A stretch of DNA of 32,000 bases from Thermodesulfobacterium commune DSM 2178. GTDB taxonomy: Bacteria; Desulfobacterota; Thermodesulfobacteria; Thermodesulfobacteriales; Thermodesulfobacteriaceae. This document shows, piece after piece, positions 28,120 through 32,000 of this stretch; position 1 is the stretch's first letter, and every line of letters starts with the position of its first letter. The notes under the pieces are model-generated. The model saw only the letters and a program-made list of their open reading frames with translations. It did not search any database and had not been told where the DNA came from. The translations under genes were made by a program, and so were the position numbers. The stretch lies in assembly GCF_000734015.1 (NCBI RefSeq), contig NZ_CP008796.1, positions 690,001 to 722,000 on the forward strand, given 5' to 3'.

Positions 28120-29232
28120 TTATATGGATTTGACCATAGGTTTGACTTTAGTTTTAAACATGATATTTCTTAAAAACTTCTCTTCAGACCTACTCATCAA
28201 AGAGATAGCCGTACCAGTTTGACCAGCCCTTCCGGTTCTGCCTATACGATGGATATAAGATTCGGCATCCTTAGGCAGTCCATAGTTGATTACCAATCCA
28301 ACATCTTTAATGTCTAAACCCCTCGAGGCTACGTCGGTTGCTACTAAAATTTTAAATTCTCCTGCCTTAAAACCCCTCATCACCATCTCTCTTTTTTTCT
28401 GCGGATAATCTCCATGTATAGCTTTTACTGAGTAGCCCTCTTCCCTTAAAGCTTTGGCTAACTCTTCTGCCTCTAACTTAGTTTGCACAAAAATAATGAT
28501 CTTAGGTTCTTGCCAGATAGATAAAATTGCCGTTAGTTTTTCAAACTTCATATGAGAAGGCACTTTGTAAACCTCTTGGGTTATCTGTTTTAACGTAATC
28601 TCTTCAGGTTTAATTTTTATGGTTTTATAACCATCTCTAAGGTATTTTTCTGCTAAAATCAAAATTTCCTTAGGTAAGGTGGCAGAAAAAAGAAGGGTTT
28701 GTCTTTCCTTAGGGGTTTGAGAAATTATGTAATCGATATCGTCTATAAAACCCATGTCAAGCATCCTATCTGCCTCATCTAAGACTAACATCTTTATACC
28801 ATCAAGCTTAAGATATCCTCTATTGATAAGGTCTTTAATCCTTCCGGGAGTACCTACTAAAACCTTCCCTACCCTTTTTTGTAAAAGTTCTATCTGTTTT
28901 TTTAAAGGTTTCCCTCCATAAAAGGTAAGCACAAAAATCCTCTTATTCTTTCCTATGTTTCTTATTTCTTCACTAACCTGAATGGCAAGCTCTCTGGTAG
29001 GGACAAGGATTAAGGCTTGAAGTTCCTTCTTTTTAAACTCTACCTTCTCTACGATAGGAATTCCAAAAGCGGCAGTTTTGCCTGTACCAGTTTGAGCCTG
29101 ACCTACTAAATCCTCTCCTGCTAAAATAAAAGGTATAGCCTTTTTTTGAATGTCTGTAGGGTCTTTATAACCCATAATGTCTAACGCCTCAAGCGTTTTC
29201 TTAGAAAGGTTAAAACTTTGAAAAGTTAACAT
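28120..29232 (-). CDS. DEAD-box ATP-dependent RNA helicase (minimal two-RecA core, 370 aa)
   Basis: Q motif (PTDIQ), AQTGTGKT, PTRELA, DEAD, SAT and HRIGRTGRAG. GGAGG is the SD. Confidence 0.9.
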   Translation of the reverse strand: MLTFQSFNLSKKTLEALDIMGYKDPTDIQKKAIPFILAGEDLVGQAQTGTGKTAAFGIPIVEKVEFKKKELQALILVPTRELAIQVSEEIRNIGKNKRIFVLTFYGGKPLKKQIELLQKRVGKVLVGTPGRIKDLINRGYLKLDGIKMLVLDEADRMLDMGFIDDIDYIISQTPKERQTLLFSATLPKEILILAEKYLRDGYKTIKIKPEEITLKQITQEVYKVPSHMKFEKLTAILSIWQEPKIIIFVQTKLEAEELAKALREEGYSVKAIHGDYPQKKREMVMRGFKAGEFKILVATDVASRGLDIKDVGLVINYGLPKDAESYIHRIGRTGRAGQTGTAISLMSRSEEKFLRNIMFKTKVKPMVKSI

Positions 29233-29507
29233 AAATCCTCCATGATTTGTTTAATTTGTTAGCAGAGAAAAGAAGTTATATGAAAATTAAACCGAGACCT
29301 TAAGGGAATTTTAAATAACCTCTTTTTACTGCTTTGTTAAACAATAACACTACAACAAAAAAAAACAAGAGACTAAACCATAATTTATTATTTTTATTAG
29401 TATCTAAATTAATTTAAAAATCTAACCCCTAAAATCAACCTTGACTATTTAAACAAATTTTTTTATTTAATATTTTTATAAGCAATTTAAACCAAGGGGG
29501 TTATAAT

Positions 29508-31487
29508 ATGGGGGTGCCTAAAGTATTAACCATCTTAGGACAAACCGACGCAGGTAAGGCAAAACTTTCTGAAGCACTATGTAAAGTTTGTGGAGAAACC
29601 ATTAAAGGACAAAAAAAAGAGTCCAACTTTTATCTTAAAATCTACGGGTTTAATTATAAAGATACACCTTTCTATCTGTTAACCACCCCAGGGGATGAAA
29701 ACTTTTTAGGTGAAGTAAAGTGGGCCTTAAAAGTCTCTGATGCAGCTATTTTGGTGGTAGACTCTTCCAATCCTATTAAATATCAAACTATAAGAGTGTT
29801 TGAAATGGCAAAAGAAATGGGTGTTCCGCTTTTTATCTTTATAAATAAAATAGACGAAGAAAAGAGTAATTTTGGTCAAACCATCTGTGACCTTCAGGAT
29901 AACTTAGAGATCTTACAAGTACCTGTCGTTTATATCTTTGAAGGTCAACCTAATAACCTTTTGGTAGATTTGGTAGAAGATAAAGCTATCCTAGAAAAAG
30001 GAAATAAGATTGAATACATAGATTATCCGGAAAATGTGAAACATAGAGTTTCTACTTTAAGGGAAAACCTTATAGAAACTGCAGCTGAAGGTAAAGACGA
30101 ATTAATAGAAAAATATCTGGATACAGGTAGTTTAACTAAGGAAGAAATATTAGAAGGACTAAAATTAGGGTTAGCTAACAATAAAATTGCCTTAATCTTT
30201 GCTGGTGCTGCCAAACCAGGCATAGGAGTATCTGTCTTTCTGGAATACTTATATCATTTTGTACCTTCCTATGAGTTAGTAAGAACACGTATAGAAGCAG
30301 ACGAAAAATCTTCTGGTTTTATCTTTAAAACCATCATAGATCCCTTCGCTGGCAAACTCTCTTATGGAAGGGTATTTGCTGGTTCTTTCTTCTCAGACAA
30401 CACAATCTTTACGTCTAATGGAAAGGAAGAAAAATACACACAAATTTTTGTCCCAAGAGGAGATGGATTACAGCAAGTAAAAGAAGTTAAAGAAGGAGAG
30501 GTTATCGTTTTTGCCAAGGTTGACGGTTTATATACAGGGATCACTTTTTCCAAAAATCCTAAGTTTAAACCTATTGCTTTACCAGAACTTCCTTCTCCTA
30601 TGATTACTATGGCTATCCATCCAGAAACCAGAGCTGACGAAGATAAAATAAGTGGGGCTTTGGTAAAAATAAAAGAAGAAGACCCCTCTATAATCTTTAC
30701 CAGAGATGAAGAAACTAAAGAACTTCTTATCTCCGGGTTAGGAGTATTACACATAGAAAAAACCATAGAAAAATTAAGAGAAAAGTTTGGAGTAAAGGTA
30801 AAACTCTCTACCCCTAAGATTCCTTATAGAGAAACCATCAAAAAAGCGGTACATGGAGTTATTTACCGACATAAAAAACAAAGCGGAGGTAGAGGACAGT
30901 TCGCTGAGGTACATTTTAATATTTTTCCATTAGAAAGGGGTAAAGGTTTTGAATTTTTAGAAACTCTTACCGGTATGAACGTTCCGAGAAACTATGTTCC
31001 GGCAGTAGAAAAAGGAGTAAGAGAAGCTATGGAAAGAGGTCCTTTAGCAGGATTCCCTGTGGTTGACGTGAAGGTACAATTTTACGACGGAAAGTCTCAT
31101 GAAGTAGACTCTTCTGACCTTGCTTTTAAGATAGCTGCTATACACTGTTTTAGGAAAGGTGTAGAGCAAGCTAACCCTGTACTTTTAGAGCCCTATGTAG
31201 AAATGGAGATATATGTTCCAGATGAAACTGTAGGAGATGTAGTAGGAGACCTAAACTCAAGAAGAGGTAGGGTTTTAGGGATTGAAAAAGATAAAAAGAT
31301 GACTAAAATATCTGCGGTGGTTCCTATGGCAGAGGTTCAAAATTATGTAGTATCTTTGCAAGGGTTTACAGGAGGAAGAGGGTATTTTATCTCCAGATTT
31401 TCTCATTACGAAGAAGCCCCACCTTTTGTGGCAGAAAAGGTGATTGCAGAAAGAAAATCTCAGATGGAGGCTGCTAAAGAAGAATGA
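29508..31487 (+). CDS. Elongation factor G paralogue with a degenerate GTPase domain
   Basis: Domains II-V are well conserved (YRHKKQSGGRGQFAEV, DGKSHEVDSSDLAFKIAA, GDLNSRRG). The G domain reads GQTDAGKA / TTPGD / NKID instead of AHIDAGKT / DTPGH / NKMD. GGGGGT is the SD. Confidence 0.85.
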   Translation: MGVPKVLTILGQTDAGKAKLSEALCKVCGETIKGQKKESNFYLKIYGFNYKDTPFYLLTTPGDENFLGEVKWALKVSDAAILVVDSSNPIKYQTIRVFEMAKEMGVPLFIFINKIDEEKSNFGQTICDLQDNLEILQVPVVYIFEGQPNNLLVDLVEDKAILEKGNKIEYIDYPENVKHRVSTLRENLIETAAEGKDELIEKYLDTGSLTKEEILEGLKLGLANNKIALIFAGAAKPGIGVSVFLEYLYHFVPSYELVRTRIEADEKSSGFIFKTIIDPFAGKLSYGRVFAGSFFSDNTIFTSNGKEEKYTQIFVPRGDGLQQVKEVKEGEVIVFAKVDGLYTGITFSKNPKFKPIALPELPSPMITMAIHPETRADEDKISGALVKIKEEDPSIIFTRDEETKELLISGLGVLHIEKTIEKLREKFGVKVKLSTPKIPYRETIKKAVHGVIYRHKKQSGGRGQFAEVHFNIFPLERGKGFEFLETLTGMNVPRNYVPAVEKGVREAMERGPLAGFPVVDVKVQFYDGKSHEVDSSDLAFKIAAIHCFRKGVEQANPVLLEPYVEMEIYVPDETVGDVVGDLNSRRGRVLGIEKDKKMTKISAVVPMAEVQNYVVSLQGFTGGRGYFISRFSHYEEAPPFVAEKVIAERKSQMEAAKEE

Positions 31488-31975
31488 TAAAAGTAGGTAT
31501 CCTTACCCTTAGTGATAAAGGATTTAAAGGGGAAAGAGAAGATAAAACCGGAGAACTTCTTAAAACCTTGGTAGAAAAAGAAGGCTGGCTGGTATCCAAA
31601 TATTTAATCCTACCTGATGAAAAAGAAAAGATAGTAGAAGTGTTAACCTCTTGGGCAGATAAAGAAAAGTTAGACCTTATTGTTACCAACGGAGGAACAG
31701 GGGTTTATCCAAGAGATGTCACCCCTGAAGCTACTAAAGAAATAATAGAAAAAGAAATCCCGGGGATCCCAGAATTTATAAGATATATAAGTTATCCCCT
31801 AACTCCGATGGCAGCCCTGACAAGGGGAATAGCTGGAGTTAGGGGAAAAACCCTTATCATCAACCTCCCTGGTAGCCCAAAAGCGATAAGCGAAATTTTT
31901 CCCAGTTTAATACCTATCATAAAACATGCTGTAGAGAAAATTAAAGGAGACCCAAGTGAGTGTGCCAGAAATTAA
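31484..31975 (+). CDS. mogA: Molybdopterin adenylyltransferase-type molybdenum cofactor protein (MogA/MoaB family)
   Basis: KVGILTLSDKG...TNGGTGVYPRDVTPEAT...INLPGSPKA. ATGA overlap with the EF-G-like stop. Confidence 0.85.
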   Translation: MIKVGILTLSDKGFKGEREDKTGELLKTLVEKEGWLVSKYLILPDEKEKIVEVLTSWADKEKLDLIVTNGGTGVYPRDVTPEATKEIIEKEIPGIPEFIRYISYPLTPMAALTRGIAGVRGKTLIINLPGSPKAISEIFPSLIPIIKHAVEKIKGDPSECARN

Positions 31976-32000
31976 ACTTTCTCAGATGGTCAAGGCTTCA
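31956..32000 (+). CDS. 5' end of an ORF running off the window (VSVPEIKLSQMVKAS...); weakly reminiscent of SelD/PurM-superfamily N-termini
   Basis: AAAGGAG at 31943-31949, followed by GTG at 31956 (or 31962), overlapping the mogA 3' end. An in-frame TAG at 31932-31934 bounds it upstream. Only 15 codons are visible. Confidence 0.3.
   Translation, partial: MSVPEIKLSQMVKAS

Follow-up and report, generated by a model that had tools for sequence, protein, structure and literature searches.

EF-G2 paralogues of elongation factor G (EF-G) that have lost both the catalytic His and GTPase activity are already known from Bacteroides and Mycobacterium. The loss of GTPase activity in the Bacteroides protein has reportedly been ascribed to a 26-residue insertion. 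As cited in later work, this Bacteroides EF-G2 (Han et al. 2023, EMBO J) translocates without GTP hydrolysis (PMC12775393). In Mycobacterium smegmatis EF-G2, the His is replaced by Tyr, no ribosome-dependent GTPase activity was found, and a role in stress has been proposed (bioRxiv 10.64898/2026.05.25.727771). For the EFG II (EF-G2) subfamily, Margus, Remm, and Tenson (2011) reported that the motifs G1 (GhxxxGKT), G3 (DxPG), G4, and G5, as well as the Thr or Ser of G2, are maintained throughout (PMC3150367). Here, we describe a gene of Thermodesulfobacterium commune DSM 2178, located at 29508-31487 on the forward strand of the 32,000-nt stretch that was analyzed (contig NZ_CP008796.1, positions 690,001 to 722,000; hereafter the window, to which the coordinates refer). 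Its 659-residue product (P0001), called T. commune EF-G2 below, departs from this description at G1, G2, and G3, and is a derived EFG II member that would probably act through domain IV as a hydrolysis-free ribosome factor.

The open reading frame (ORF) list and the Pfam and NCBIfam searches agree on a full five-domain EF-G, with matches to GTP_EFTU, EF-G_D2, EFG_III, EFG_IV, and EFG_C (domain G with G', and domains II to V). A strong Shine-Dalgarno sequence, AAGGGGG, can be read 7 nt before the ATG (29494-29500, forward strand), and the best database relative of the protein is found in Thermodesulfobacterium sp. TA1 (92% identity). The region 29538-29855, singled out in the initial annotation as part of an EF-G paralogue, corresponds to the G1-to-G4 span of this larger ORF. 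The genome contains two EF-G-like genes only. The other one is a canonical fusA, which scores 1138 bits against TIGR00484 and lies in an rpsL-rpsG-fusA-tuf cluster at 1.04 Mb; T. commune EF-G2 is thus a true paralogue, as annotated, and not the sole EF-G of its host. Its gene sits outside the str operon, flanked by a DEAD-box helicase gene and by mogA.

The GTPase motifs were read from a MAFFT alignment of T. commune EF-G2, the canonical fusA product of the same genome, and 33 homologues, from a second, separate alignment of 84 sequences, and from a site table. The P-loop (G1, 29538-29564) is GQTDAGKAK instead of the canonical AHIDAGKTT; Gly16 and Lys17 are kept, and the Mg-ligand Thr is replaced by Ala18. 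Switch I is reduced to a remnant (residues 33-47, 29604-29648), with exactly 16 alignment columns, about half of switch I, missing between Lys33 and Gly34, and Asn40 aligns in MAFFT with the threonine of RGITI or RKITI, that is, with the G2 position. In G3 (29682-29696), TTPGD stands for DTPGH, so that Thr59 takes the place of the Walker-B Asp and Asp63 that of the catalytic His; phmmer, run against EF-G chains of the PDB, pairs the same two motifs independently of MAFFT. G4 (29844-29855) is NKID, for canonical NKMD, and G5 (30204-30215) is GAAK, for canonical GSAF or GSAK, the change of Ser to Ala being a feature of the subclade to which the T. commune protein belongs. All five motifs lie on the forward strand. 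The hand alignment behind the initial annotation (GQTDAGKAK, TTPGD, NKID, and the tip of domain IV) is therefore reproduced, including the segment between G1 and G3 that was estimated to be about 16 residues shorter and to lack the switch-I threonine.

Two further observations support these readings. The spacing between G1 and G3 is 48 in short relatives that share the deletion (L048 and L049), compared to 64 in full-length EFG II proteins. TTPGD together with GK[AV] is found again in six proteins from independent assemblies, indicating that the changes are not sequencing errors. The NCBIfam and PDB alignments start only near residues 35-57 of the protein, due to its divergent N-terminus. Within the subclade (P0001-P0006), the Ala or Val of the P-loop invariably precedes a Lys or Arg (GKAK, GKAR, GKVK), while Thr or Ser is found there in other subclades; this basic residue could be a candidate charge substitute for Mg2+.

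The profile scores place the protein in the EFG II region of the EF-G family. It scores above the cut-off of the 'elongation factor G' subfamily model NF009381 (655 bits for a cut-off of 583), and below those of the canonical equivalog TIGR00484 (484 versus 659), whose AHIDAGKTT, RGITI, and DTPGH are all altered here, of the Bacteroides-type EF-G2 model NF058620 (417 versus 1000), and of the EF-G2 model NF009377 (403 versus 890). A ribosomal protection protein of the Tet(M)/Tet(O) type, one of the roles offered in the initial annotation, was rejected given its 253 bits against NF012153, whose cut-off is 775. In a FastTree phylogeny of 169 rows, built by this one method with canonical EF-G sparsely represented and no spdEFG or Tet sequences, 9 AHIDAGKTT/DTPGH rows are split from 160 non-canonical rows by a branch with 100% local support. 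The non-canonical side includes the T. commune family, P0250 (near-identical to T. thermophilus EF-G-2), and P0255 (Bacteroides EF-G2-like), so that the expected grouping apart from canonical EF-G was obtained for the families represented. The protein also has the five domains, the position outside the str operon beside an EFG I gene, the G4 NKxD and G5 motifs, and the type I positions Gly11 (21/21 in the genus) and Leu20 (Leu or Phe in the genus) described for EFG II, and it lacks the GhxxxGKT of G1, the DxPG of G3, and the Thr or Ser of G2. On this sequence evidence, T. commune EF-G2 belongs by descent to the EFG II/EF-G2 subfamily, whose members mostly have an impaired GTPase.

An exhaustive search over 1.84 billion representatives, in which motifs were read in the best 150 matches and tallied for 149, indicates which of these changes are unusual. 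Of the 149 representatives, 145 have another residue in place of the catalytic His, most often Tyr or Phe, and Asp or Glu within the subgroup closest to T. commune EF-G2; the loss of this residue is therefore the rule in the family. At the first P-loop position, Gly or Ser predominates, and G2 follows a relaxed xxx[ST]x pattern. GK[ST] is retained in 148 representatives, as many as retain the Walker-B Asp, and about 140 have a full-length switch I.

The G1 to G3 columns were omitted from the tree of the 84 family members, where the proteins with the switch-I deletion group in a single clade of 47 rows, with a support of 99 in the Shimodaira-Hasegawa-like approximate likelihood ratio test, sister to full-length Thermodesulfatator forms. 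The deletion therefore arose once, in part of the Thermodesulfobacteriales. Within the clade, the Thermosulfurimonas-type and Caldimicrobium-type proteins have lost the switch-I segment yet keep GKT, the G2 Thr (in a PT context), and DTPG[DE]. A long branch (0.62) then leads to Thermodesulfobacterium, a genus represented by 21 rows with a support of 97, where the loss of the Mg site is patchy. Position 18, the P-loop Thr, is Ala, Val, Thr, Ser, or Asn in the 21 sequences of the genus, and is invariant in the 18 Caldimicrobium-type and the 37 long forms. Position 40, the G2 Thr, is Asn, Thr, Phe, or Leu in the genus, invariant in the Caldimicrobium-type proteins, and Thr or Ser in the long forms. 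Position 59, the Walker-B Asp, is Thr, Asn, Ser, Asp, or Tyr in the genus and again invariant in both other groups. One Thermodesulfobacterium subclade retains all three residues. The initial statement that every catalytic element is altered is consequently right for T. commune but extends to only part of its genus, since GKT, the G2 Thr, and DTPG are all present in sister lineages that bear the deletion.

The variety at these three positions points to relaxed constraint on the Mg2+/γ-phosphate site rather than to a new catalytic solution. In contrast, G16, K17, N113, K114, and D116 are invariant in all 21 Thermodesulfobacterium sequences, against a background invariance of 21% in the G domain, and the role of the P-loop lysine and of the guanine-recognition motif, whatever it is, is therefore still selected. 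A shorter switch I also occurs in an unrelated EFG II branch, in L124 (a Ca. Acetothermia metagenome-assembled genome, MAG) and L114 (a Ca. Bipolaricaulota MAG), with a G1-G3 spacing of 56; the Walker-B Asp of L124 is replaced as well (VTPGL), an independent and parallel loss. A third EF-G paralogue, of 680-685 residues with canonical AHIDAGKT and DTPGH, was observed in L136 (G025), L137 (G037), and L138 (G023), of which G023 and G025 are Thermodesulfatator-type hosts and G037 is a more distant member of the same phylum; it forms a clade apart from the str-operon fusA.

Purifying selection acts on the EF-G2 gene, which is functional. The reading frame is open in every EF-G2 orthologue, and the ratio of nonsynonymous to synonymous substitution rates (dN/dS, Nei-Gojobori method, for pairs with unsaturated dS of 0.29-0.40) amounts to 0.06-0.09 for the whole gene, 0.09-0.13 for the G domain, and 0.02-0.03 for domain IV. 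Across the 21 Thermodesulfobacterium sequences, 77% of the domain IV positions are invariant. Loop I of this domain (QSGGRGQ(F), 30879-30899, forward strand) is canonical-like in the family alignment, where Q458, G460, G461, G463, and Q464, five residues out of seven, do not vary among the 84 sequences, and so is the tip DGKSHEVDSS (31086-31115, forward strand; phmmer and family alignment), in which nine of the ten residues are invariant and Glu532 is at least 90% conserved. The loop residues by which canonical EF-G touches the codon-anticodon helix are, for the most part, invariant in all 84 sequences, as are E190, A193, E194, E201, and K202 of the acidic helix of G', a helix known to contact L7/L12. 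The EF-G body is complete, from this helix through domains II-V, its ribosome-facing surfaces are intact, and its domain IV tip nearly matches the canonical one. An AlphaFold2 model has a mean predicted local distance difference test (pLDDT) score of 90.2, with the lowest confidence only at the switch-I remnant, and its best Foldseek matches are ribosome-bound EF-G structures, with template modeling (TM) scores of 0.86-0.89; 1WDT and 8DMF are also matched.

Among the described systems closest to T. commune EF-G2 is the delta-proteobacterial sub-subgroup of EFG II (PMC3150367; NF009381), with which the protein shares the five domains, the location outside the str operon beside EFG I, a Gly first in the P-loop, a Leu after GKxx, long-form relatives carrying an RxxT/SI variant of G2, and a highly conserved domain IV next to relaxed domains I-III. 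T. commune EF-G2 differs by the loss of the G1, G3, and G2 Thr/Ser states and of 16 switch-I residues. B. thetaiotaomicron EF-G2 (PDB 8DMF/7UVP) also has no catalytic His and resembles it in overall fold (TM 0.86), but belongs to another EFG II branch, as indicated by the NF058620 score, and its close representative P0255 keeps GKT, DAPG, and a full-length switch I. In M. smegmatis EF-G2 (PDB 9K0Z/9K10), the His is likewise replaced and the G2 residues are not conserved; nevertheless, the substituting residue is Tyr and not Asp, guanine nucleotide binding has been reported, no switch-I deletion has been reported, and the two proteins match in two separate stretches with 270 bits only. T. thermophilus EF-G-2 (PDB 1WDT/2DY1), the structural founding member of EFG II, lies on the same side of the tree and has a matching fold (TM 0.81), but keeps GKTT, the G2 Thr, and DAPGY, and is reportedly GTPase-active and translocation-competent.

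In P-loop GTPases, the Mg ligands are required for tight Mg-GTP binding, and in EF-G the catalytic His, activated by the sarcin-ricin loop, is required for hydrolysis. In M. smegmatis EF-G1, the H88Y substitution nearly abolishes hydrolysis (bioRxiv 10.64898/2026.05.25.727771). With the His, the P-loop Thr, the G2 Thr, and the Walker-B Asp all replaced, T. commune EF-G2 very probably has no canonical GTPase activity, and we infer that it falls into the class of pseudo-GTPases. Together with the presence of a second EF-G, the motif changes being confirmed and patterned in orthologues, and the purifying selection, this makes a hydrolysis-incompetent ribosome factor the best reading of the sequence data. 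The initial annotation had come to the same proposal, a pseudo-GTPase ribosome factor, which we would retain, except that the loss of the His is the EFG II norm and not special to this protein. A thermophile-specific role, also offered there, was rejected, as many MAGs of mesophilic Desulfobacterota carry members of the parent family.

We suggest that T. commune EF-G2 would dock at the factor site of the ribosome, recruited by L7/L12, and that its domain IV would enter the decoding center and promote or stabilize tRNA-mRNA movement by binding energy alone. It would in this way most likely be a slow, GTP-hydrolysis-free translocase or a stress-time translation factor, akin to the Bacteroides EF-G2. 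The binding energy of EF-G is indeed sufficient for the forward steps of translocation (PMC12775393). With switch I missing and an Asp opposite the sarcin-ricin loop, the protein would be held less firmly on the ribosome in a GTP state, which would permit release without hydrolysis. The protein may still bind a guanine nucleotide, in a Mg2+-free manner, and it would be co-expressed with mogA and selD.

These two genes directly follow that of EF-G2. The ORF list, Pfam (MoCF_biosynth), and NCBIfam identify mogA (31484-31975, forward strand) as a 163-residue MogA/MoaB-type protein, the sole stand-alone copy of this type in the genome, and its start overlaps the EF-G2 stop in ATGA at 31484-31487, as initially noted. 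The sequence then shows a GTG start of selD at 31956 on the same strand, overlapping the 3' end of mogA by 20 nt; selD occupies 31956-32000 and continues beyond the window as L039 7957-9018, with an in-frame TGA at codon 17 for selenocysteine (Sec), in the SelD Cys/Sec motif SGU-AAK, just past the window edge. The use of Sec is, to our knowledge, nearly universal in the phylum. EFG2-mogA-selD is thus a translationally coupled trio, which selD joins only in Thermodesulfobacteriaceae, and no terminator-like site was found on the forward strand across 29200-32000. The upstream gene is the divergent DEAD-box helicase gene, which keeps this place only in the closest genome.

The link to mogA had initially been left unexplained as a feature of this operon; it is real, and is not a quirk of one genome. 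mogA lies directly 3' of EF-G2 in 27/27 Thermodesulfobacteriales loci with enough flank, from three families and with protein identities of 47-92%, and the same order is seen in larger regions of complete genomes. Outside the order, mogA adjoins EF-G2 in all six informative loci of the DTPGDDNF type (Desulfobacterales, Desulfatiglandales, and 'Ca. Desulfacyla' MAGs) and is one gene off in three more Desulfobacterota MAG loci, labeled Syntrophobacterales or Deltaproteobacteria. At the loci examined, mogA is not beside the DTPGY-type genes of Chloroflexota and other phyla, and none is found near the DTPGDDNF-type gene of G037. The association is therefore conserved across several Desulfobacterota orders, and our literature search found no paper linking EF-G paralogues with mogA, so that the operon appears not to have been described before. 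In two loci, a gene for a XerC/XerD-like tyrosine recombinase lies divergently upstream of EFG2(-mogA), at 1718-2701 on the reverse strand of L056 (a Desulfobacterota MAG labeled Deltaproteobacteria) and at 1811-2767 on the reverse strand of L058 (labeled Desulfobacterales).

Several points weigh against a hydrolysis-free factor acting through domain IV. T. thermophilus EF-G-2 reportedly has ribosome-dependent GTPase activity with a Tyr for the His, and the motifs are thus not always predictive of activity. The strict retention of GK and NKxD suggests that a nucleotide-dependent step, possibly unconventional, could persist; the conserved domain IV is also compatible with recycling or simple ribosome occupancy; and the proposal gives no account of the conserved pairing with mogA. 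In the main rival reading, the protein would bind 70S or 50S particles in stress and regulate or protect ribosomes without moving tRNA. Such a role has been proposed for mycobacterial EF-G2, as the M. smegmatis protein is devoid of GTPase activity, described as stress-specific, and bound to the non-ratcheted 70S and the 50S (bioRxiv 10.64898/2026.05.25.727771); translocation has been doubted as the main role of EF-GII (Atkinson 2015), and constraint on the G domain is 3-5 times more relaxed than that on domain IV. Nevertheless, the codon-anticodon loops of domain IV are nearly invariant and canonical-like, a constraint beyond what occupancy seems to require, and the L7/L12-binding helix is invariant as well, which leads us to regard this alternative as unlikely. 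A GTPase that works unconventionally, with Lys/Arg19 or another residue standing in for Mg2+, would agree with the retained GK, NKxD, and G5, with the basic residue right after the substituted Thr, and with the activity of the T. thermophilus protein in the absence of the His. It is hard to reconcile with the loss of three independent Mg/γ-phosphate ligands, each replaced by several residues in relatives, and with the deletion of that half of switch I which becomes ordered on the ribosome, and seems to us highly improbable.

The pairing with mogA suggests a different connection, which is speculative, namely that EF-G2 aids the translation of Mo/W-selenoenzymes, for instance at Sec-UGA codons or under conditions in which these enzymes are needed. 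The adjacency in the Thermodesulfobacteriales and in the DTPGDDNF-type loci, the coupling to a Sec-containing selD, and the lone stand-alone mogA copy all speak for it. However, related genomes may simply have inherited the adjacency as synteny, the DTPGDDNF-type gene of G037 lies away from mogA, selD stands beside the pair in one family only, and the literature offered no EF-G-mogA connection; we consider this explanation improbable. A combination of both ideas, a natural EF-G without any Mg2+-GTP chemistry, binding its nucleotide free of Mg2+ or none at all, whose phylum-wide operon with mogA, joined by Sec-selD in this family, would serve the making of Mo/W-selenoenzymes, for example through Sec-UGA decoding or energy-limited synthesis of formate dehydrogenase, appears quite improbable. 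Finally, the degenerate G motifs and the 0.62 branch to the Thermodesulfobacteriaceae clade might recall a decaying, functionless gene, but the frame is intact in all relatives, dN/dS is 0.04-0.09, domain IV is largely invariant, and both the Shine-Dalgarno sequence and the operon structure are conserved. The chance of decay is negligible, and the dN/dS values led us to reject a pseudogene.

Three features of the hydrolysis-incompetent factor proposed here are new with respect to the known GTPase-less EF-G2 proteins: a switch-I deletion of single origin, the dismantling of the whole Mg site within one genus with retention of the nucleotide-base and phosphate-lysine motifs, and a phylum-level EFG2-mogA operon. 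The loss of the Mg site in Thermodesulfobacterium contradicts the published generalization that EFG II keeps G1 and G3. It is still debated whether EF-G hydrolyzes GTP to drive translocation or only to leave the ribosome (PMC12775393), and no evidence for the sufficiency of binding energy is better than that from natural EF-G2 proteins that dispense with hydrolysis. A graded natural series is available within one order, from full-length DTPGD forms, through the Caldimicrobium and Thermosulfurimonas proteins with switch I deleted and the Mg site intact, to the variously dismantled Mg sites of Thermodesulfobacterium, with domain IV essentially unchanged through all three stages. A biochemical comparison of these stages would reveal which elements of the G domain are dispensable to a translocase-like factor. 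The EFG2-mogA operon is an association separate from this series.

One additional ORF lies within the EF-G2 gene, on the opposite strand (30362-30766, reverse strand, 134 residues); it is unsupported and most likely spurious.

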